Numbered from the stretch's first letter, positions 43,616 to 57,475 are shown. The stretch: 64,000 nucleotides of DNA from Candidatus Cloacimonadales bacterium (GCA_963662275.1 OY759316.1:1120001-1184000); one strand, 5' to 3'. Made by a program: numbers and translations. The notes: generated from the sequence alone by a model not told the origin.

Positions 43616-45476
43616 GAGACTGTTCATGAAGTTATTCATAATATTCAATAAGTTAGAAAGTAGCAAGTTGAAAAAAGTGGTCGAAACGGTCATAATTTAA
43701 CATACCTTCCAGAATTGACAGATAAGCTCTGCTAAGGACACCAAATCACAAGTTAAGCTTTTTGACTAAAATTGAAAAACACGCGATTATAAGTAATGTT
43801 TCGAAGCCGTTTCTGACTAAATGTGTAGTTAAAATCATATAAAATAGTTCTTTACAAGTTTTTTGCTATAGCTTCAATGGCATTTGTTACCTGGTAACAA
43901 AAGGGAGGATATTATGACAAAAAAACACTCCAATTCAAGAAGCGGTAAGTGTTAGTCATGAAAGTAACCAATACCATGTAAGTATTAACGTACCATTTTC
44001 ATTCACTTTGCCTGAGACAACATCAAACCACAAGTTCTTAATAGCGTTTCTACGCTTATTAGTAGGAATAGGCGGAGACAACCTCCTTACACTTCAGCAA
44101 ATAGCTGATCTGTTTAACTACGCAGACCGCAGGAATGTACATAATTTCTGGCAAGAGTTTGAGCAGCATGGTCATGATATCCTGGCATATTTAAGCCGGA
44201 AAGTTGACCTGCTGGAGTGTATTCCTCAGATCGAGAATTTTGTTATCAATAACCTGCTTTTACCTTTAAATGTCATGTATCAGGAGTTCATCAGCCATCA
44301 TGATTTTAAAATGTCCTATACCACTTTCTGCAAATATGCTTCTCAGGTCAATTCTCTGTCTGTAGTTAAGCAAGCTCAGAAGCTTCTTCTGAAAAAGACA
44401 GTAGGCGGTGATGCTGTACATCTGCTGAAACTGCTTGCCGGTCAGCAGAATACACCTGTTATCTGTGACAGACTCCTGGAACAAATGAAGACTGCTAAAG
44501 GCAATACATCCCATAGAACCGCCGATGCAAAGCCGTTCCATAGTCTGGAACGCAAGAACCTGTGTCTGCTGGTACATTACCTGGTTGGAAGCGGTATGAA
44601 CTTCGAGACGATAGCTTTGCTGCTCAACACCTGTAAAGCTACAGTCTCAAATCTCTGGCATGAAATCGCTGACCTGCAGAGCCTGATTCTGAACTCAATC
44701 GGTAAGTGGAGCGGAAAGATCAGCATTGATGAGAAATATGTGAAGATCAAAGGTATTCCGTACTATGTCATCAGTATTGTTGATTTTGTGACTCACATCC
44801 CTCTGTTTTGTGAGTTGTATCCTGACACAAAGAAAGAATCATTCGAAGCATGTTTCAGAACCTTCAGACAGCTCTACAGGAAAGATCCAACCCTGATTGT
44901 CAGTGATGGCAGTAAATCGTTAGCAGTTGCAAGAAAAACAGTGTTTCCAAAAGTCCATTACCAACTCTGTAAGTTCCATAAGATACGAAATCTCTTCAAA
45001 AGAATCAGTCAATGTCATCTCCCTGAAGACAGGGACAAGTTCTTTAAGAAGAGGATTATGAAAGCTTTCCGAAGAGAAACGGCGGGCGGAAGGAAAAAGG
45101 GTATCGCAAGCCTGACAGCTATTACTCCCCCAACCGCCGCCGAATACATCAAAAGCAATATCATTAGTGATTGGAGACACCTCAGCAAAGGTTTGACTTC
45201 CAATGTCTCTGAACGCTGGAACCGCAAAATCAAGAAGGTGACATCCGGTAGATTTGGACTAAAATCTGAAGAAACCACCCGCAACCTTGTGTTTTCGCTT
45301 TGGTTCAAAGAACTGGTCGATAAAGGTCAACCAATCATGCGTCAGGAATCACTTTTAGCAAGTTTAAATATCTCCCGCATATGTCAAGAAAATGTGGATT
45401 GGTCGCACTTAGACCACTTTTTCTCTGTCACTACCAATAAGGCTGCGTAAAATGGAGGTTAATTTTGAACAGTCTC
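43616..45476 (+). mobile_element. Complete insertion sequence, 1861 bp, DDE type (family uncertain; IS256/Mutator-like or IS6-like motifs)
   Basis: TIR GAGACTGTTCA (43616-43626) / TGAACAGTCTC (45466-45476); 8-bp TSD CATTAACA at 43608-43615 and 45477-45484. Confidence 0.92.
44008..45450 (+). CDS. DDE transposase (natural start probably ATG 43914, out of frame by one base)
   Basis: ISIDEKYVK, IVSDG, CKFH, SERWNR; N-terminal HTH-like segments; frame open from 43918. Confidence 0.85.
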   Translation: MPETTSNHKFLIAFLRLLVGIGGDNLLTLQQIADLFNYADRRNVHNFWQEFEQHGHDILAYLSRKVDLLECIPQIENFVINNLLLPLNVMYQEFISHHDFKMSYTTFCKYASQVNSLSVVKQAQKLLLKKTVGGDAVHLLKLLAGQQNTPVICDRLLEQMKTAKGNTSHRTADAKPFHSLERKNLCLLVHYLVGSGMNFETIALLLNTCKATVSNLWHEIADLQSLILNSIGKWSGKISIDEKYVKIKGIPYYVISIVDFVTHIPLFCELYPDTKKESFEACFRTFRQLYRKDPTLIVSDGSKSLAVARKTVFPKVHYQLCKFHKIRNLFKRISQCHLPEDRDKFFKKRIMKAFRRETAGGRKKGIASLTAITPPTAAEYIKSNIISDWRHLSKGLTSNVSERWNRKIKKVTSGRFGLKSEETTRNLVFSLWFKELVDKGQPIMRQESLLASLNISRICQENVDWSHLDHFFSVTTNKAA

Positions 45477-47102: not shown

Positions 47103-47202
47103 GTGTTAGGTTCTAGGTTCTAGGTGTAAGGGGCAGAGAAGATTTTTTCCACCAAATACCGGAATACTATACTGAATATTAATATTGATTATTACTAAAG
47201 AT

Positions 47203-47229
47203 AAGCCCCGATAACGATCGGGGCTTTTT
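47203..47229 (+). terminator. Intrinsic terminator after the nucleotide-sugar dehydrogenase
   Basis: AAGCCCCGAT-loop-ATCGGGGCTTTTT hairpin with U tract. Confidence 0.7.
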
Positions 47230-47325
47230 CCATTGAAGAGTTAATTTCTGAACAAATTCTAAAAATACACATCCGAAGAATGAATACAGCTTGATTTCAT
47301 GAAAATGGATATTCTCAATCTGGAC

Positions 47326-47388
47326 TAGCACCTAGCACCTAGCACCTAACACCTAACACCTAGCACCTAGCACCTAGAACCTAAGACC
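47326..47388. repeat. Heptamer tandem array TA(G/A)CACC, about 9 units; short inverted array at 47100-47127
   Basis: TAGCACC/TAACACC/TAGAACC units read directly. Confidence 0.85.
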
Positions 47389-47430
47389 TTCTGCTTGACA
47401 AAAACCTCATCATCACTGAAAAGGAATTCA

Positions 47431-47518
47431 CGCCGAGTGGCAGGTTCTAAACTACATAGCATGAACTGTCACCGATAGGGTATAACGGGAAACGGTTATA
47501 CCTCCCTTTGGAAAGGCG
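47431..47518 (+). ncRNA. Moco/Wco (molybdenum/tungsten cofactor) riboswitch-like RNA motif, apparently lacking P3
   Basis: P1 CGCC/GGCG; P2 GUGGCA-GUUC/GAAC-UGUCAC; AGGG; P4 GGUAUAAC/GUUAUACC capped by GAAA; 3' CCUCCCUUUGGAAAGG matching the remembered moaA-leader consensus. Confidence 0.8.
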
Positions 47519-47540
47519 GGACAGAAATAACAGGACTGTC

Positions 47541-47568
47541 TTGCCTCCACGCATAAACATGGAGGTAA
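47541..47568 (+). promoter_or_regulatory. SD-sequestering hairpin (putative riboswitch expression platform)
   Basis: UUGCCUCCA (47541-47549) pairs with UGGAGGUAA (47560-47568), covering the GGAGG just before ATG 47570. Confidence 0.7.
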
Positions 47569-47569
47569 C

Positions 47570-48403
47570 ATGAAAAAGCTACTATTACTAACTCTCACAA
47601 TTGCAATGCTCTTTGTGCTTTTCGGATGCAGCGAAAAGGATAAGAGTCCCACGAAGGTTTATGGCTATAAACTGGATCAGTTCATTTCAAAAACAGCAGT
47701 ATTTGATTCTACTACTCATTCAACTTCTATGGCTGATTCAGTCGAAATTCGTAATCTTTACGCTTATGAAATTGTCAGTGCTGATTCTGATCACTGGAGT
47801 CCTCGTACTGCTACTTCTACAGCAGGATATGATTTATCTTGGAACCAGTTTAAGAATGGATTCTATATGCCCTCAGATGCTAATCTGATATCGTGGTTTC
47901 CGAATACTACTCTCCCTGGAGCTTTTAAAGTTAAACGTGTCGGTTTCTTCAGATTATATCGAAAAATAGATGTAACTGCTTCTGACGGTTCAACAAAGAT
48001 GGTCGAATTGAAGAGTTTACCTTTGTTTCCCATCGATAATTGGAATCATGTACAGGAAAATGCGATTAAATTAAGTGATTTAGTACAGGGAATTGCAGCT
48101 TATGATTCACTGAAAATGGTGGGAGTAGATGGTTTTTCACGTACATATAGTTCTGCACAAATTGCGGATGGTTACTACTTGTTAGATTCAGAAGTAACTA
48201 CTTTCCCATTACTTAATGGAACTACACTCACTCCTGGAATATGGAAAGTAAAGAATCTGGCTTATATAGATGTTATAGGTGTCTCTTCACCTCAATCCTT
48301 TACATTCATCAATGCTCTTGAAGAAACAGCAGATATGATCTTTCTGATGCCTTCGAGCATGAATAGTTATACAACAACAGATGTTACCGGACTATCGAAG
48401 TAG
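47570..48403 (+). CDS. Lipoprotein with two degenerate Moco-binding-like repeats
   Basis: Lipobox LFGC; repeats GYKLDQFI...VSAD...FKVKRV and AIKLSDLV...VGVDGF...WKVKNLAYI. Confidence 0.6.
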   Translation: MKKLLLLTLTIAMLFVLFGCSEKDKSPTKVYGYKLDQFISKTAVFDSTTHSTSMADSVEIRNLYAYEIVSADSDHWSPRTATSTAGYDLSWNQFKNGFYMPSDANLISWFPNTTLPGAFKVKRVGFFRLYRKIDVTASDGSTKMVELKSLPLFPIDNWNHVQENAIKLSDLVQGIAAYDSLKMVGVDGFSRTYSSAQIADGYYLLDSEVTTFPLLNGTTLTPGIWKVKNLAYIDVIGVSSPQSFTFINALEETADMIFLMPSSMNSYTTTDVTGLSK

Positions 48404-48413
48404 TAAATCACTC

Positions 48414-48968
48414 ATGTGGGATAAATTCTTTCGCAGGTTCAGTACACATGATCTGCTTTTAATATCGTTATTCAGCGCTTTGGGATTGGCGATTAAACCA
48501 ATCGTCACTCCCTTGGTGCACTTGATCTCCATGCCGCTAATGATTCCAGGCGGTTCTCTTGCTGGCGGGTTTTATATGATGTGGCTGGCTATGGCAGTTG
48601 CTTTAATACCGAAATTTGGAACAGGGTTTCTTGTTGGAATCGTTCAAGCCCTTTCAATTCTGGTCTTAGGTATTACCGGAAGTCATGGGATAGTATCGAT
48701 CATCAGTTATTCTCTCCCAGGTTTATTGATAGACATTTGTGCTCTTATGATTAAACATAGAGCCTGTTTATGGGCACAAATTCTATTCGTGATCATCGCT
48801 AATGTAACAGGTACGATCATGGTGACGCTACTAATCATGCGATTATCAATCATACCGGCTATGATTGCTCTAACCAGTGCTGCTATATCCGGGTGTCTTG
48901 GTGGTTTGCTTTCTTTTTGGTTGATTAAAAAAATGATTGCATATCATTTAGTTACTATTGAGGATTGA
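48414..48968 (+). CDS. ECF transporter S component (likely start ATG 48414; track start 48381)
   Basis: About 185 aa with six TM helices; ST.DL..I.LFSAL, PKFG, PGLL.D pattern; ECF A and T genes in the same operon. Confidence 0.75.
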   Translation: MWDKFFRRFSTHDLLLISLFSALGLAIKPIVTPLVHLISMPLMIPGGSLAGGFYMMWLAMAVALIPKFGTGFLVGIVQALSILVLGITGSHGIVSIISYSLPGLLIDICALMIKHRACLWAQILFVIIANVTGTIMVTLLIMRLSIIPAMIALTSAAISGCLGGLLSFWLIKKMIAYHLVTIED

Positions 48969-48971
48969 ACT

Positions 48972-49940
48972 ATGCGTAATGTTGTTTTAAGTTTGATAAT
49001 AATACTTGCAATGTGTCTGCCATCCATTCTAATTGGCTGGGTAGTAACCAATTCAGATGGAGGTACGAAAGTGTTTACAAATGACAGCTTTTCTAAGCTG
49101 CCTATGATTGAAGTAAAGACAGAACGGGATAAGAAGGGACAGCATCTTTCTGATCAATGGAAAGGATTTCTTCTTCAGGATTGGCTGGAGAAGAATGGTT
49201 ATACTGATTTCGGTGAGATTATTTTGGAATCTTCAGATCATTACCAGGTTCGATTATCTAAAGATGATTTGGTCAAACAGGAAGCATTGATAGCGATATT
49301 CCAAAATAATCAGCCACTTGAGCAAAAGGATATACGCCTCATACTTCCCGCTATGCGAGATATGTACTGGATTACGAACATTTCAAAGATTACACTTCAG
49401 GATAAAGATCAAGCCAACATTCCCAGTTGCATATATTGGGCAGAACCGATTATTCATGCCAAACAGCTAAGAACTGATATCGTACCATTCAAGGATATGA
49501 AGGGTTATGCTTTTACGGATTTACTTGAACCCAATATTCCCTTCCCTGATGGCGATGTCTTAGTGATGGGCAAAGATGGAGTCAGGCATCTATTGGATTA
49601 TCGCAAATTCTTAAAAAAGGCAGTACTGGAAAAGACAGAAAGCGAAGGTTATTGGCTCAAAAGTCCGGATATGCCAGCAGGAATGTGGATTAAGAACATC
49701 GCTTATGTTCAATTCAGTAAAACAGGTATACTTTTCAAAGAGGCTTTTCAGAAGAAATCATTACAGGATTTAGCTGATATGCTTCTCTGGAAGAATGTGA
49801 CTGCCTTCATACCTATTGAAAAAGATACACCGGCTAATGAGATCAAGTCATGGGAAAACAAGGAATTAAAATTACAAATGATAAACTTGTCGAACGCTCT
49901 AATTACTCATTATCCATCGATTCAACTGAAGGTCAAATGA
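48972..49940 (+). CDS. Exported protein with two sulfite-oxidase-like (Oxidored_molyb) domain repeats, no catalytic Cys apparent
   Basis: WKGFLLQDWL...ESSDHY...LIAIFQNNQPL...RLILP...WITNISKI; second repeat KGY.FTDLL...GKDG...WIKNIAYV. Confidence 0.6.
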   Translation: MRNVVLSLIIILAMCLPSILIGWVVTNSDGGTKVFTNDSFSKLPMIEVKTERDKKGQHLSDQWKGFLLQDWLEKNGYTDFGEIILESSDHYQVRLSKDDLVKQEALIAIFQNNQPLEQKDIRLILPAMRDMYWITNISKITLQDKDQANIPSCIYWAEPIIHAKQLRTDIVPFKDMKGYAFTDLLEPNIPFPDGDVLVMGKDGVRHLLDYRKFLKKAVLEKTESEGYWLKSPDMPAGMWIKNIAYVQFSKTGILFKEAFQKKSLQDLADMLLWKNVTAFIPIEKDTPANEIKSWENKELKLQMINLSNALITHYPSIQLKVK

Positions 49941-50398
49941 AGAAATTAGTTGTGATTATTCTTATTACTTTCGCATTGCTCTTGTTGTGGTCGAAACCAT
50001 TGCCTTTGTATATAGATGGTTCTCAGAATCCTATGATCATTCATAATACGAATCTTGGTGACTTTGTTCAGACTCAAATACCTTTCGTGAAAGCTGCTCT
50101 TATCGTAGGTTCTGATTCAATAGCTGTTGGAGTAACTGCAGATGAATTCGGAATGATAAGTTTAAAGTATGAAAATAATGAGTGGTTTGTAGAAAACGAT
50201 TCCCTGCCTTCACCAGCCAATATCAGGGACATTTCTAAAATCTATTTGTATAATCCATTTGCTTCAGTTACATCATCCAGTGATTCAAATCGTTTTCAAT
50301 TCACGGACATAAGGAATAATGCAGATTTTCTCGGACAGGCAGAAAAGAATGGTTATATTATCTGGAAATATCGTATTCATCAAGGAGTTAATAAATGA
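49937..50398 (+). CDS. Exported hypothetical protein, possibly a highly degenerate member of the same fold (start ATG 49937)
   Basis: Signal peptide MKKLVVII; ATGA overlap with the previous gene; IVGSD...NIRDISKI. Confidence 0.5.
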   Translation: MKKLVVIILITFALLLLWSKPLPLYIDGSQNPMIIHNTNLGDFVQTQIPFVKAALIVGSDSIAVGVTADEFGMISLKYENNEWFVENDSLPSPANIRDISKIYLYNPFASVTSSSDSNRFQFTDIRNNADFLGQAEKNGYIIWKYRIHQGVNK

Positions 50399-50835
50399 AA
50401 CCAATTCCCATATTACTTATCGGCCTTGTATTAATCCTGACAGCATTAGAGCTATGTTCCAAACAAATCATACCAAGTACAGGAATTATTCAAATCGTCA
50501 CCGAAAAGAAAACATACAATATAGCTGATCATATCTTTCAAAGACAAATGACCCAAAAAGTCAAAGCTAAACGAGGTTCGGTATGGCATGGAGTGTATCT
50601 TGCCAAATTCTTTACGGAGAATGGATTCGATGTTAAAAAATATCAGCAATGCACTTTGGTGGCAAAAGATGGAATGCGGATCACGATTCCGATGGATGAA
50701 ATTACCGATAACCAGGCATTTATTACTTTTGTGAAAGATAAGAAAAGCGGTAAGTATGATTTGAAACTTATCATGCTGCAGGACTCTTTTGAGCAGCGTT
50801 GGCTGAAATATATTGTTCAAATCATACTGGAATAA
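50395..50835 (+). CDS. Exported single Oxidored_molyb-like domain protein
   Basis: Signal-like N-terminus; WHGVYLAKF...VAKDGM.I.IPMDEI...LKLIM...WLKYIVQI. Confidence 0.6.
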   Translation: MKPIPILLIGLVLILTALELCSKQIIPSTGIIQIVTEKKTYNIADHIFQRQMTQKVKAKRGSVWHGVYLAKFFTENGFDVKKYQQCTLVAKDGMRITIPMDEITDNQAFITFVKDKKSGKYDLKLIMLQDSFEQRWLKYIVQIILE

Positions 50836-50837
50836 GA

Positions 50838-51530
50838 GTGTCATCATCTTCTTCACTTGAACTGATTGATTTATCTTTCCAATATCACAAAGAATATGAC
50901 TGGTTATTCAGAAATCTGACATTTCAATTTGAAAAGGGCAGCATTACTGCAATAACCGGTCCCAATGGCAGTGGTAAAACAACGTTACTTTATACAATCT
51001 GCGGAATCATTCCGCTGTTGTTTAAAGGAAATCTGCAAGGTCAGGTGAATTACTCTGATAAGGACATTTCCAAATATTCTTTACCCCAACTTTCGAAATG
51101 GATGAATATACTGCTGCAAGACCCAAATTATCAATTAGTGTTTCCAATTGTTGAACAGGAAATTGCATTTGGAGCTGAGAACTTGTGTTTACCTGTTTCT
51201 CAAATCGAGAAAAGAATTTGTAGAAACCTCAATCTCCTGGGAATCGAGGATTTACGCTTTGCCCACACCGCTGAATTATCCTATGGTCAAAAAAAGATGG
51301 TTTCGCTTGCATCCTTATTAGTAATGGAAAGCCAGATTCTGATCCTGGATGAACCTTCAGCCGGATTGGATGAATATGCATGTGAACTGCTAAAGACTCT
51401 GCTGCTGAATTTATCCGCTGAGGGAAGAATCATTATCTTTGCAGATCATAATTCCGAATTAGTGCAAATTGCTCATCACCGGATTACTATGCCGTATTTT
51501 TTGAACAAGGTCGATACTGATGATCTATAA
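50838..51530 (+). CDS. ECF-type ABC ATPase (likely start GTG 50838; track start 50799)
   Basis: GPNGSGKTT, LQDP..Q....VEQEIAFG.EN, LSYGQKK, ILDEP. Confidence 0.85.
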   Translation: MSSSSSLELIDLSFQYHKEYDWLFRNLTFQFEKGSITAITGPNGSGKTTLLYTICGIIPLLFKGNLQGQVNYSDKDISKYSLPQLSKWMNILLQDPNYQLVFPIVEQEIAFGAENLCLPVSQIEKRICRNLNLLGIEDLRFAHTAELSYGQKKMVSLASLLVMESQILILDEPSAGLDEYACELLKTLLLNLSAEGRIIIFADHNSELVQIAHHRITMPYFLNKVDTDDL

Positions 51531-52179
51531 TCTGCAAAATATCAGTTATGGCTATGTTCCTGGAAAGCTTATCCTGGATGAAATAAGCATGATTATCATG
51601 GAGAACGAGATCACTCTACTCACAGGAATCAATGGTTCGGGGAAAACAACTTTCTGCAGATTATTAACAGGTCTCATATCTGCTTATCAAGGAATAATCT
51701 CCTTGGAAAATAGTGATTTAAAGAACTATCAACCATATCAGATTGCTGAAAAAGTACTATATCTCAAACAGGAAGGTATTCAAAACATCGTTGCAGCTAC
51801 ACCTGGTGAAGACCTAATGATTCGACAAAGAAAATTCGTTCAGAAGGATAATACAACTTTTGAAAAAGCCAGGGAAGAGGCTCTTAAAAGTGTTGATCTT
51901 GTTCATCAAAAGAATATTCCAACCTGGGAAATGAGCGCAGGGCAGGTAAAACGGATTGGTCTTGCTACCTTATCGCTATTCACTTCATATTATTGGATAC
52001 TGGATGAGCCATATCTTGGTCTGGATACTAATTTGATAATGAAACTAAAGAAACAGCTTTCTGAGAGAAAAGAACAAGGATATGGAGCGATGATCGTTAA
52101 TCATTTGGATATTTCAGATGATTTTCAATACGATGCACACTATCATTTGAAAAATGGAAAGTTGATTAAAGTATGTTGA
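51520..52179 (+). CDS. Second ECF-type ABC ATPase
   Basis: GINGSGKTT, MSAGQ, ILDEPY, VNH. Confidence 0.8.
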   Translation: MIYNLQNISYGYVPGKLILDEISMIIMENEITLLTGINGSGKTTFCRLLTGLISAYQGIISLENSDLKNYQPYQIAEKVLYLKQEGIQNIVAATPGEDLMIRQRKFVQKDNTTFEKAREEALKSVDLVHQKNIPTWEMSAGQVKRIGLATLSLFTSYYWILDEPYLGLDTNLIMKLKKQLSERKEQGYGAMIVNHLDISDDFQYDAHYHLKNGKLIKVC

Positions 52180-54098
52180 ATAACAACCTGTTTTTTCCGT
52201 TAATCTGTATTTTAACGATTTCATCACTTTATGCTGATACTATTGCAGGTAGAGATACGATAGCGAAGGATAGTTTACAAATCAGGCATTACACATTGGA
52301 TGCGCTGCGTGTTATTGGTGAGAAACCAAGTGAAACGATTGGGTCAGTCAATATTACTAATATTGATTATGCAAATCAACCCGGTCTGCAAAATGTGAAA
52401 GATGCTTTAACAAACTTACCCGGTATCAGTATGACTGTTGGTTCAAAGGATGAAAGTAATTTACGTATCCGGGGTTTTCGAAAGAACGAAGTGAAAATAT
52501 TGTTGGATGGAAGACCTCTCAATGCAGGATATTTCGGGAATGTTAATCTCCAAAACCTGCCAGTTTCAGGTATCAGTGAAATCCAGGTATTGAAAGGACC
52601 AGTTTCTTCGATGTATGGCAGTAATACTTTGGGTGGTGTTGTTAATTTAATTACCAGGGATCCTTCAACAAGAAAATGGTTCAAATTGGGCATGAGCGTT
52701 AAAAGGAATAATACAAATCATTTCGAGTTATCTACTTCTCATCGATTCGAAAATTGGAACTATTGGTTGTTTGCTTCTCTTGAGCACAGCGATGGCTTTC
52801 TTCTTCCAAAAGACTTTCAAGCAACTAATTCAGAGAATGGTGGTGTTCGTGATAATGCCAGCAAAACCCAAGAGCTTGTGGAAGTTAAAAGCACATGCAA
52901 TATCACTGATTTTCACATGATCACTTTTACCGCAGGGGTTGCCAGTATTCCTACAAAGTATTTGCCATCATCCATTTATGAAACTAAATATCGACTTTAT
53001 AAAGACTATCAACGCCTGGAAGGCACAATTCGCAGCAATCTTCAGCTTTCACCTGGTTGGAAGCTGGATTCCATGCTCTATTTGGATGGTGGAAAGGACA
53101 CATATCAAGAGTTTAATGACCCCAATTTCCATCATATGGCAATGGATTCTGATATGAAGAATTTCACTATTGGATTTACACACCGCGCTAATTTGCAGAT
53201 GCAGGATGGAAGCGAGTTGAGCATTGGATATCGGGGTGAAAGGCAATTCAGCAATCGGAAGGATAATGGAAACTACCCAACCTGGACAGATCATTCCACA
53301 ATGCTGCATAATCTCTTTTCCCAGGTGGAATGGAAAGTATCCCAGCCATTGACTGTTACTGGCAGTGCTGGGGCTTCCTATTTCTCAAAAGATGTTGAAA
53401 AAAGTAATGCCCTGTTATTCGAACCTTCCCTGGGGGTTTACTATGAGTTTCCAAATCACGCTTCATTATCTTTGGCTGCAGGTAGAAATACGGCTTTTGG
53501 AACGATGAGACAGTTATTTAGTGTAGAGAATGGCAACATCAATTTACGTCCCCAGGTTAGCATGAAATATGAAATTACTGGTAAAAAGCCATTCCTGCTG
53601 AATACTGCAAATGGACTTCTAAGCTTGAGTCTTTATTTGAATGATGTGAAAGACTTAATCGATATTCATGGAAATACCTATCAAAATATCTATAAAGTGC
53701 GTTCTTACGGTGGTGAATCGGATTTGGAAATAGCACCCTATTCCTGGTGGAATATGACTTATTCATATTGCTATCTCGATTATGCCGATTTAAGCAGCTA
53801 TCGTTTGACTGAAAGCCCCAGAAATACGGTTGGATTGAACTGGACTTTTCTTTTACCCGTAAGAACGAAAGTCACTGTTTCTTCAAATTGGGAAGATATG
53901 CGTTTCAGTGAAGATTCAAATTTCCAATATCATCATTTGGACTCATACTGGGTACATAATCTCGCGTTGAAAAAGGAATGGCGTGATTTTTCAATAACCT
54001 TTGGCTTAGAGAACTTCACAGATACTAATTACCAGGAAGAATACGGCTTCCCTGCACAGGGAATCAACTTCTGCTTTGGTTTAGAGAAGGAATTCTGA
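52173..54098 (+). CDS. TonB-dependent outer-membrane receptor
   Basis: Signal peptide; plug motifs IRGF, LLDG.P, IQVLKGPVSSMYGSNTLGGVVNLIT; EN..D..Y; C-terminal Phe. Confidence 0.92.
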   Translation: MLNNNLFFPLICILTISSLYADTIAGRDTIAKDSLQIRHYTLDALRVIGEKPSETIGSVNITNIDYANQPGLQNVKDALTNLPGISMTVGSKDESNLRIRGFRKNEVKILLDGRPLNAGYFGNVNLQNLPVSGISEIQVLKGPVSSMYGSNTLGGVVNLITRDPSTRKWFKLGMSVKRNNTNHFELSTSHRFENWNYWLFASLEHSDGFLLPKDFQATNSENGGVRDNASKTQELVEVKSTCNITDFHMITFTAGVASIPTKYLPSSIYETKYRLYKDYQRLEGTIRSNLQLSPGWKLDSMLYLDGGKDTYQEFNDPNFHHMAMDSDMKNFTIGFTHRANLQMQDGSELSIGYRGERQFSNRKDNGNYPTWTDHSTMLHNLFSQVEWKVSQPLTVTGSAGASYFSKDVEKSNALLFEPSLGVYYEFPNHASLSLAAGRNTAFGTMRQLFSVENGNINLRPQVSMKYEITGKKPFLLNTANGLLSLSLYLNDVKDLIDIHGNTYQNIYKVRSYGGESDLEIAPYSWWNMTYSYCYLDYADLSSYRLTESPRNTVGLNWTFLLPVRTKVTVSSNWEDMRFSEDSNFQYHHLDSYWVHNLALKKEWRDFSITFGLENFTDTNYQEEYGFPAQGINFCFGLEKEF

Positions 54099-54859
54099 TG
54101 CAGGAAGAAAAGGACAACCGGCTAAACCCGGAGCTACGACTAAATACCAGGACGAAAATACTGATGGTTGTCACCCTCTCTTTTCTTGCCCTACTATACA
54201 GCCAGGTTTGGATACTTGCCATATTGACCTGTATTTCCTTACTCCTTTACATCATTGGAAAAAGGCGATCTTCTTCTAATCATTCTAAAAGCAATTTCAA
54301 ATCTCTATTGATATTAATATTCAGTCTTATGTTCATTCAAATCCTATTCCGACCTGCAGGCACGTTATTATGGCATTGGGGAGTTGTTCGCATTTCAATG
54401 GAAGGAATCAACTATGGCGTTGCTGCTTCTTTCAGAATACTGATCATCTTCCTTTCTGCTGGATACTTGCTGAGTATTTCCTATTATGAATATCTAATGG
54501 CGTTCCGATCCTGGAGACTCCCGTATGAACTATCTTTCCTCATGGCTTCCGTGCTGCAATTCCTGCCTATTCTAAGAAGGGAATTTCAATTAGTGGGAGA
54601 AGCACTCACTTTACGCGGTATAGAATTGGGGAGATTACCTTTATTGAAGAGATTAAATGCCTACCAGGAGCTTGTTTTCCCAATACTGGCTAGAGCAGTT
54701 TCTTCACTAAAGTTTCGTGTAATCTCTCTCGAAATGAGAGGTTTCCGACTTTCTAATAAACGTACTGCATTGCATGAAGATCATTTGAAGATTATTGATT
54801 ACATGGTGCAGGGCGGTCTTGTATTTATCATCACAGTCTGTTTTTACCTGAAGATTTGA
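54098..54859 (+). CDS. ECF transporter transmembrane T component
   Basis: LN.RTK, QFLP, LTLRG and LEMRGF coupling motifs. Confidence 0.85.
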   Translation: MQEEKDNRLNPELRLNTRTKILMVVTLSFLALLYSQVWILAILTCISLLLYIIGKRRSSSNHSKSNFKSLLILIFSLMFIQILFRPAGTLLWHWGVVRISMEGINYGVAASFRILIIFLSAGYLLSISYYEYLMAFRSWRLPYELSFLMASVLQFLPILRREFQLVGEALTLRGIELGRLPLLKRLNAYQELVFPILARAVSSLKFRVISLEMRGFRLSNKRTALHEDHLKIIDYMVQGGLVFIITVCFYLKI

Positions 54860-57081: not shown

Positions 57082-57475
57082 CCTATCACTAACACCTATC
57101 ACCTAACACCTATCACCTAACACCTATCACCTATCACCTAACACCTAACACCTAACCCCTAACACCTAACCCCTATCACCTAACCCCTATCACCTAACCC
57201 CTATCACCTAACACCTAACACCTAACACCTAACACCTATCACCTATCACCTAACACCTAACCCCTAACCCCTAACACCTAACCCCTATCACCTAACCCCT
57301 ATCACCTAACACCTAACACCTAACACCTAACACCTAGCACCTAGCACCTAACACCTAACACCTAACACCTAACACCTAACACCTAGCACCTAGCACCTAA
57401 CCCCTATCACCTATCACCTATCACCTAACACCTAGCACCTAACACCTAACACCTATCACCTAACACCTAACACCT
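57082..57475. repeat. Long heptamer array (A/C)CCTA(A/T/G)C, about 56 units
   Basis: ACCTAAC, ACCTATC, CCCTAAC, CCCTATC, ACCTAGC units; overlaps the last codons and stop of the TagF-like gene. Confidence 0.95.

Follow-up and report, generated by a model that had tools for sequence, protein, structure and literature searches.

Organization of the locus

A putative operon for the uptake of a pterin cofactor of molybdenum (Moco) or tungsten (Wco or Tuco) lies in a stretch of DNA from a Candidatus Cloacimonadales bacterium (GCA_963662275.1, OY759316.1:1120001-1184000). The whole stretch, 64,000 nucleotides (64 kb) in length, was analysed and is called the window here, and positions are counted from its first letter. 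The host genome is closed, with one contig of 4.38 Mb and a completeness of 99.97%. Nine open reading frames (ORFs) on the plus strand (47570-54859) directly follow a structured leader and are coupled to each other, the junctions ranging from a 10-base gap to a 37-base overlap, with overlaps of 1-11 bases in most cases. In order, they encode a lipoprotein (p1), the S component of an energy-coupling factor (ECF) transporter, three further exported proteins (p3, p4, and p5), two ECF ATPases (A1 and A2), a TonB-dependent receptor, and the ECF T component. A terminator-like hairpin at 47203-47226 belongs to the gene upstream, indicating that the nine-gene cluster is a separate unit. The features are as follows.

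47419-47534, plus strand: Moco/Tuco riboswitch aptamer RF01055, variant without stem P3 (cmscan)
47535-47569, plus strand: expression platform, with an anti-Shine-Dalgarno sequence (anti-SD) GCCUCCA at 47543-47549, a Shine-Dalgarno sequence (SD) UGGAGGU at 47560-47566, and the ATG at 47570
47570-48403, plus strand: p1, lipoprotein of 277 amino acids with a PruR-like fold (Cys20, AF2, Foldseek, hhalign)
48414-48968, plus strand: ECF S (substrate-specific) component, PF09819/YkoE family (Pfam)
48972-49940, plus strand: p3, exported protein of 322 amino acids with two tandem cysteine-free PruR-like domains of the sulfite oxidase (SUOX) fold (PF00174, AF2, Foldseek)
49937-50398, plus strand: p4, small exported protein of 153 amino acids (homologues)
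50395-50835, plus strand: p5, exported single-domain PruR/SUOX-like protein of 146 amino acids (hhalign)
50799-51530, plus strand: ECF ATPase A1 (ABC_tran, 92.5 bits, Pfam)
51520-52179, plus strand: ECF ATPase A2 (ABC_tran, 74.7 bits, Pfam)
52173-54098, plus strand: TonB-dependent outer-membrane receptor of 641 amino acids, of no known specificity class (plug and barrel, Pfam)
54098-54859, plus strand: ECF T (scaffold) component, CbiQ family (PF02361, 69.4 bits, Pfam)

A preliminary description of the locus had proposed nine tightly coupled same-strand genes behind a structured leader, and the ORFs together with the RF01055 match directly upstream bear this out. The parts that it had named, namely the S and T components, two ATPases, the TonB receptor, a lipoprotein, and an exported Moco-fold protein, agree with the Pfam assignments and with the lipoprotein cysteine of p1. 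Its layout of the genes stands, and small corrections apply to two starts: the ORF of the S component opens at 48381 and its start is probably at 48414, which gives a protein of 184 amino acids matching the database copy, and p4 probably starts at 49937. None of the nine proteins reached an NCBIfam equivalog cut-off.

The riboswitch leader

The leader was matched to the Moco RNA motif, RF01055, over the full model (positions 1-135), scoring 67.7 bits where the gathering score is 36 (cmscan, E 3.6e-14), in accordance with its earlier reading as a Moco-type riboswitch. No other Rfam family scored over threshold anywhere in the 64 kb window, and the copy at 47419-47534 is the sole RF01055 match in the whole genome. 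The model positions of stem P3 are deleted in the alignment of the leader, and the stem is absent from all 20 aligned riboswitch copies of the order, comprising the present one and 19 from the operons of relatives. According to the accessible part of Regulski et al. 2008 (PMC2408646), P3-less variants are tied to Tuco metabolism, and riboswitches of this class classically lie upstream of mod and tup transporters.

In the ligand-free minimum-energy fold (z -4.2), the anti-SD GCCUCC lies within the segment 47536-47548, which is paired with the 3′ end of the aptamer (47510-47524), and the SD at 47561-47565 is unpaired. On this folding model, ligand binding would sequester the SD.

The transporter module and the outer-membrane receptor

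The S component, the T component, and two A components are encoded in one operon and their order is kept in relatives, as expected of a dedicated (group I) ECF transporter; ECF systems are importers. The S component belongs to PF09819 (40 bits, cut-off 25.2) and has 194 homologues, the named ones being mostly from Cloacimonadota, and the T component was assigned to the CbiQ family. For A1, the best NCBIfam models were cbiO and ECF_ATPase_1 with 137-139 bits, which is below their cut-offs; compared with the ECF ATPase equivalog cut-offs, A1 scored 137.4 bits against 315 and A2 scored 74.9 against 315-330. By these scores, A1 and A2 are divergent ATPases. A single-sequence phmmer search with the S component found no solved S component in PDB at E <= 1. 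A thiamine context of the YkoE type was not found either, RF01055 being the only Rfam family in the window and the family that homologous loci carry. The predicted complex between the S component and residues 28-146 of p5 scored 0.00, a result that carries no weight either way.

The receptor contains a Plug domain (81.2 bits) and a barrel matched by OMP_b-brl_3 (37.5 bits) in Pfam. Its scores against the NCBIfam specificity models stayed below the cut-offs, with 101 bits against 316.85 for TonB-hemin and 93.6 bits against 599.7 for B12, and no siderophore model was reached. Neither the receptor nor the S component reached the cut-off of a B12, heme, or Ni/Co equivalog, a result in favour of the preliminary description. 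Among 20 fetched loci of relatives, the receptor is present in 13 and the lipoprotein in 14, and p1 is seen beside the receptor in relatives. The lipoprotein p1 matched no Pfam family; its Cys20 is invariant in all 13 homologues. An AlphaFold2 (AF2) model of p1 has a predicted local distance difference test (pLDDT) score of 81, and its seven best Foldseek matches in PDB are all PruR chains, although weak ones (E about 0.01, TMt 0.49-0.60). Comparison of p1 with the N-terminal domain of p3 by hhalign gave a probability of 67% and E 5e-5.

The exported proteins

The exported protein p3 matched PF00174 (Oxidored_molyb) with 31.2 bits against a cut-off of 24, the match being partial and covering profile positions 60-166 only. 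Its AF2 model, based on an 80-sequence alignment, has a pLDDT of 90.8, and the best Foldseek match in PDB is the periplasmic pterin-binding protein PruR (7kom, E 1.6e-8, TMt 0.71), followed by sulfite dehydrogenases and oxidases and by YedY. The profile of the p3 family also matched SorA (7e-8) and PruR 7kp2 (2.5e-5), and the sequence identity to PruR is only 13-17%. An invariant D89-x-Y91 of the family aligns with the N-x-Y of PruR; the alignment ends at profile position 114, so an invariant W133 is unplaced. As far as the accessible part of the PruR report (PMC11194511) goes, the N-x-Y residues and a Trp contact the pterin ring, on which the Tyr stacks, the Mo-ligand cysteine is absent, and the pterins bound are of the monapterin/neopterin type. 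No conserved cysteine was found in the p3 family (18 homologues), which thus lacks the Mo-ligand cysteine conserved in SUOX-family molybdoenzymes.

The smaller proteins p4 and p5 matched no Pfam family. The p5 family is related to the N-terminal domain of p3 by hhalign (probability 98.3%, E 1.2e-14), and its Bacillota homologues reach PF00174 with 27.2 and 36.3 bits. Taken together, p3 and p5 are cysteine-free SUOX-fold proteins closest to the PruR pterin-binding proteins, which gives a more precise form to the Moco fold first ascribed to the exported proteins. Assignment of p4 as a further PruR-like domain was rejected, the hhalign comparison of the p4 family with p3 being not significant (E 0.037, probability 1.4%). 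Instead, the similarity of p4 is to the N-terminal domain of a larger protein, to which a nucleotide pyrophosphatase/phosphodiesterase domain is joined in many relatives; this C-terminal domain, PF01663, is present in five of six long homologues (416-456 amino acids). An extracytoplasmic pyrophosphatase domain would suit the cleavage of dinucleotide cofactor forms.

The N-termini of p1, p3, p4, and p5 are of the secretory (Sec) type or the lipoprotein type and contain no twin arginine, and p3 has an N-terminal hydrophobic helix. The lack of a twin-arginine translocation (Tat) signal suggests that the exported proteins leave the cytoplasm without cofactor.

One more SUOX-fold protein is encoded outside the operon (G000:C1:3749873-3750565, minus strand; L016:1387-2079). 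It is a lipoprotein of 230 amino acids with a full-length Oxidored_molyb match of 93 bits, and a serine occupies the position of the YedY Mo-ligand cysteine (RLTSVTRWSV versus RMRCVEAWSM), so this protein is also exported and cysteine-free.

Cofactor biosynthesis and molybdenum or tungsten enzymes in the genome

When the closed genome was searched in six frames, none of the families MoaA_C, MoaC, MoaE, and MoeA_N was matched, whereas the control searches found each of them in 11 of 14 known genomes. MogA was not found, the single MoCF_biosynth (PF00994) match in the genome being CinA. Likewise, no transporter or binding protein of the TupA, ModA, or WtpA type was recognized in the genome. A PBP_like_2 match was considered as TupA and discarded because the gene sits in a pstSCAB-phoU operon; the SBP_bac_11 matches are the PstS of that operon and an orphan protein of the SBP_bac_6 type.

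Enzymes that depend on such a cofactor are nevertheless encoded. The genome contains a full aldehyde ferredoxin oxidoreductase (AOR) of 720 amino acids (AFOR_C, 327 bits) preceded by a ferredoxin gene, a second and divergent AOR-family protein, and three complete enzymes of the xanthine dehydrogenase (XDH) family with FAD and 2Fe-2S partners, beside the one SUOX-fold lipoprotein gene. A PF00384 match was not counted as a molybdenum or tungsten (Mo/W) enzyme; rather than a formate dehydrogenase, it is a NuoG/GltD-like fusion covering the first 148 profile positions only. The combination foreseen in the preliminary description, in which the pathway is absent and Mo/W enzymes are present, is thus found.

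A cluster elsewhere in the genome (G000:C1:862319-864907, L122) encodes a MobB-like protein of 246 amino acids, a ThiF-family protein of 203 amino acids, and a kinase-like protein of 237 amino acids, the kinase-like gene lying two ORFs downstream of the MobB-like gene. The MobB-like protein shares 43% identity with the copy that terminates the ECF operons of Bacillota. Just upstream of this cluster, at 857429-858781, is a gene for a group II intron reverse transcriptase.

Distribution in the order

The distribution of the system was surveyed in 41 genomes of the order, the present one included. The S component was found in 30, p3 in 32, the riboswitch in 33, AOR in 30, and a MobB-like protein over the cut-off in 33 genomes. 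The biosynthetic families are rare in the same sample, with MoaC in three genomes, MoeA in two, and MoaA_C in two, both of the latter below the cut-off. AOR and the S component occur together in 27 genomes and are both missing in eight. Three genomes have the S component and no AOR; three have AOR and no S component, namely one with MoaC and MoeA (G009) and two assemblies of 82% and 91% completeness. The riboswitch was located upstream of the S component, within 2 kb and on the same strand, in 21 of the 30 genomes that encode this component. The gene order lipoprotein-S-p3-p4-p5-A1-A2-receptor-T is conserved in relatives, and one family has a minimal S-p3-A1-A2-T arrangement. The MobB-like and kinase-like genes are directly adjacent in three relatives.

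P3-less riboswitch copies were also observed directly upstream of AOR genes in relatives, as in G014, where a copy at 2623925 precedes an AOR gene at 2624071. Four such pairs were recorded (G014:C1:2623925-2624667, G002:C13:906029-906771, G031:C66:33475-34213, and G009:C27:52829-53573), suggesting that the same sensor controls both the putative importer and an enzyme that uses the cofactor.

Occurrence beyond the phylum

When species genomes were scanned with the S-component alignment, 505 loci were confirmed, of which the best 80 were examined. Nearly all of these 80 are from Bacillota, and single loci carry the labels Thermotogaceae and Thermoleophilia. The riboswitches of the order served to build a covariance model, which gave 61 matches in the 80 loci. 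In 54 of the 80 loci a match lies upstream of the S component on its strand; among the remaining 26, the flank is shorter than 1 kb in 12. In an Rfam control on 20 loci, RF01055 coincided with the model match in 11 of 11, and the nine match-free loci gave nothing. The expected recurrence of S-component homologues with Moco riboswitches is therefore seen both within the order and in other phyla. Profile matches to ORFs in the 80 loci were obtained for p3 in 56, p5 in 70, and p4 in 52, and a MobB-like gene is present in 63.

The sampled Bacillota operons consist of the riboswitch, an FMN_bind protein, p3, the S component, p4 with a pyrophosphatase domain, p5, A1, A2, T, a MobB-like/Fe-S protein, and a kinase-like protein. 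One of them (L113) includes MoeA, and one has an extra FecCD-type ABC system. A tblastn search of the present genome with the Bacillota FMN_bind protein found no such part. The kinase-like proteins of this genome and of the Bacillota operons are barely alike (E 3e-4 in one comparison and no match in the other), and on the basis of sequence their equivalence is a lead only. The first 50 host genomes behind the 80 loci, mostly metagenome bins with completeness unstated, were searched as well: AOR is present in 45 of the 50, and in 11 of the 13 without MoaC.

Some arrangements in these loci deserve mention on their own. Two Moco/Tuco riboswitch copies stand in tandem, about 50 bases apart, before the Bacillota form of the operon in each of two loci (L053:6951-7235 and L058:3435-3713), and in L058 the same leader is also found upstream of a FecCD/Peripla_BP_2 ABC transporter. 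In the Thermoleophilia bin (L091:7592-11713), the S-component match lies within an ORF of 1373 amino acids, which may reflect a fusion or, in this high-GC DNA, a miscalled ORF.

Other features of the window

The heptamer CACCTA[A/G/T] forms intergenic tandem arrays in the window. One of 8.4 copies closely precedes the riboswitch (47325-47383), a short one at 47107-47125 is in inverted orientation, and the long ones are found at about 57.1-57.5 kb (57093-57470). A 14-mer of two such units has 45 matches against 0.16 expected. In addition, a transposase ORF of the Mutator/MULE family (480 amino acids) is located at 44008-45450, two genes upstream of the operon.

Proposed function and alternatives

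The operon probably serves the riboswitch-repressed uptake, across both membranes, of a Mo/W pterin cofactor by an organism that is unable to make this cofactor. The uptake reading of the preliminary description is supported. What the analysis shows is the Moco/Tuco riboswitch, the nine genes, the protein folds, and a genome that lacks the biosynthetic pathway; from these we infer the transport itself, the identity of the ligand, and each hand-over step, and the cargo could be the finished metal cofactor, metal-free pterin, or the metal. A tentative extension, possible rather than probable in our judgement, is that most Cloacimonadales are natural auxotrophs for the Mo/W pterin cofactor and import the finished, metal-bearing form via the TonB receptor and the ECF module.

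A plausible sequence of events can be drawn from the parts. When the cofactor is scarce in the cytoplasm, the P3-less aptamer would be empty and its 3′ end would hold the anti-SD, so that the operon would be translated. The lipoprotein p1 and the TonB receptor might then take the cofactor, or a fragment bearing it, over the outer membrane, and the labile pterin could be held in the periplasm by p3, p5, and probably p1 through their cysteine-free PruR-like domains. The cargo would be imported by the ECF module (S, T, A1, and A2). In the cytoplasm, it would probably be handled by the MobB-like P-loop/Fe-S protein and the kinase-like protein, both encoded elsewhere in the genome, and would be passed to the apoenzymes of the AOR family and possibly the XDH family. 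A rising level of cofactor would close the aptamer, which would claim its own 3′ end and free the anti-SD, thereby shutting the ribosome site and translation. The pyrophosphatase domain that relatives possess could act on dinucleotide forms of the cofactor and cleave them before they enter the cell.

Several observations weigh against this proposal. Free Moco is chemically labile. The p4 of this genome has no pyrophosphatase domain, and a tblastn search of the genome with the long homologues found only the N-terminal part, in the operon. In nine of the 30 genomes of the order with an S component, the riboswitch was not seen near it, one of these having only 433 bases of flank. The five genomes of family f12 (G012, G020, G026, G032, and G038; 98-100% complete) have two XDH-family genes each, and searches of all five found no S component, p3-type operon, riboswitch, AOR, MoaC, MoeA, or MoaA_C; a profile search for p3-like proteins gave only a weak SUOX-like ORF in two. 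The XDH genes of this family imply either that another supply route exists or that the system serves tungsten enzymes only, and the latter would fit the Tuco-type riboswitch and the link to AOR. The counts of co-occurrence overstate the support because related genomes are not independent. Among the 50 host genomes outside Cloacimonadota, MoaC is present in 37, which, together with the MoeA gene inside L113, indicates that the system is not confined to auxotrophs and that metal insertion may follow import in some hosts. Finally, the PruR cleft is too short for a whole Moco according to the accessible part of PMC11194511, and therefore the fold match makes pterin binding plausible and does not amount to Moco binding.

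The form of the cargo is the point on which the first alternative turns. The imported compound could be a pterin without metal, whether molybdopterin, a form that has been dephosphorylated or derives from a dinucleotide, or a degradation product, that is re-phosphorylated and loaded with metal inside, as in the vitamin salvage by a phosphatase, a transporter, and a kinase. This explanation, which we regard as unlikely, would account for the extracytoplasmic phosphodiesterase/pyrophosphatase domain of the long p4 homologues and for the kinase-like gene that follows the MobB-like gene in three relatives and lies two ORFs downstream of it here, with an APH-like gene after MobB in the sampled Bacillota operons. 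MoeA in L113 and MoaC in most of the host genomes are also in line with it, and the PruR pocket, in the accessible part of its description (PMC11194511), fits a bare pterin better than a whole Moco. However, MoeA is unmatched in this genome and in 38 others of the 41, and no tungstate- or molybdate-binding protein was recognized here, so no known enzyme is left for metal insertion. The barely recognizable resemblance between the kinase-like proteins of the two phyla also speaks against it.

A second alternative, which appears quite improbable, is that the metal rather than the pterin is carried, the operon encoding a new ECF-type importer of tungstate or molybdate under a cofactor riboswitch in the manner of tup and mod operons. 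Metal-importing ECF systems exist (Cbi/Nik), no ModA- or TupA-type protein was seen in the genome, and most hosts outside Cloacimonadota could make the pterin (MoaC in 37 of 50) and have AOR (45 of 50). The classical position of these riboswitches before mod and tup transporters, as given in the accessible part of PMC2408646, is in keeping with such a function. Nevertheless, the genome has no match to MoaA, MoaC, MoaE, or MoeA, and MoaC and MoeA occur in three and two of the 41 genomes of the order, respectively. An imported oxyanion would consequently have no pterin to enter, and an importer of metal alone is hard to hold for the order. Moreover, accessory proteins with a pterin-binding fold and the pyrophosphatase domain of relatives would not be expected for an oxyanion.

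It is very improbable that the operon transports another pterin or pyrimidine-type compound, such as a PruR-like signalling pterin or a YkoE-like thiamine precursor, with an indirect link to the riboswitch. The Pfam family of the S component and the monapterin/neopterin-type ligands of PruR (PMC11194511, accessible part) would agree with such a cargo, but across phyla the operon is preceded by no riboswitch other than the Moco/Tuco type, the MobB-like gene is linked in 63 of 80 loci, the presence of the system in the order tracks AOR, and no DcpA-type partner gene is present in the operon. Hardly credible is the notion that the exported SUOX-fold proteins are periplasmic enzymes or redox partners and that the transporter serves their substrate or maturation: their fold is that of sulfite oxidases and the Bacillota operons start with an extracytoplasmic FMN_bind protein, a hint of redox chemistry outside, but they have no conserved Mo-ligand cysteine, their signals are Sec-type rather than Tat so that they are exported without cofactor, ECF systems import, and the genome cannot make the cofactor to load them.

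Relation to known systems

The uptake of a Mo/W pterin cofactor proposed here resembles the B12 system, in which BtuB and an inner-membrane importer act together. In both cases, a cofactor riboswitch represses a TonB receptor and an ATP-driven importer with binding proteins between them, and the B12 system also serves cells that are unable to make a complex cofactor. The present operon differs in having RF01055 instead of a cobalamin riboswitch, an ECF-type inner-membrane part, binding proteins of the SUOX/PruR fold, and a receptor that scores 93.6 bits against the B12 cut-off of 599.7. By analogy, it looks like the B12-type logic rebuilt from a YkoE-family ECF module and PruR-like domains under a Moco/Tuco riboswitch.

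YkoEDC is the dedicated ECF transporter for thiamine/hydroxymethylpyrimidine (HMP) of Bacillus subtilis. It has an S component of the same family, PF09819, and dedicated A1-A2-T parts in the same operon, but it is governed by a thiamine pyrophosphate (TPP) riboswitch instead of a Moco/Tuco riboswitch and has neither a TonB receptor nor extracytoplasmic pterin-fold partners, both of which are present here. ModABC, TupABC, and WtpABC share the riboswitch class and the metabolic area with the operon, whereas they are type I ABC importers with oxyanion-binding proteins, and the architecture and accessory folds found here are different. The PruR proteins of Agrobacterium, Vibrio, and Klebsiella (7kom, 7kp2, 7rkb, and 7kos) are, like p3, small exported SUOX-fold domains without the Mo-ligand cysteine; in the accessible part of PMC11194511, PruR partners the diguanylate cyclase-phosphodiesterase DcpA for signalling, whereas a DcpA-type GGDEF-EAL gene is absent from the present operon, and the PruR-like domains occur here in tandem or multiple copies in a transporter operon with a Moco riboswitch upstream.

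The idea of cofactor uptake has one precedent. In the accessible part of a 2021 review (PMC9026282), Moco is held to be too labile for uptake and de novo synthesis is hence required, the only known exception being Caenorhabditis elegans, which takes up dietary Moco by a mechanism that is described as not understood. This animal obtains finished Moco from other organisms, as proposed here, but it is a eukaryote with no known transporter and no sequence relation to the operon. A survey of riboswitch regulons (PMC3766115) names, in the accessible part, no Moco transporter in its coenzyme uptake category, where those for B12, thiamin, riboflavin, queuosine, and folate appear. Literature searches, with subscription-only papers and supplements not covered, found among the papers listed no description of a Moco-riboswitch ECF system or of prokaryotic uptake of Moco or molybdopterin, and none of those listed for Cloacimonadota and the molybdenum cofactor dealt with the subject by title. 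This is consistent with the earlier statement that no characterized prokaryotic importer of this layout is known.

Biological meaning

An order that keeps AOR- and XDH-type enzymes without the whole pathway implies an exchange of cofactor between microbes, and the operon provides a concrete and testable candidate for the machinery, from the receptor and the binding proteins to the importer and the sensor. If the proposed uptake is true, it would explain what a widespread ECF subfamily, with 505 confirmed loci, and the MobB-like proteins do. The binding proteins would then be stabilizers and carriers of the cofactor, useful for the production of tungsten enzymes and for research on Moco deficiency. 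If the tentative extension to uptake of the finished cofactor also holds, Moco/Wco would be a traded vitamin in anaerobic communities and the operon would represent its first prokaryotic uptake pathway. The proposed uptake, if true, would moreover add a cofactor to the vitamins that microbes are known to share and would explain a dependency of hard-to-culture syntrophs in anaerobic digesters.

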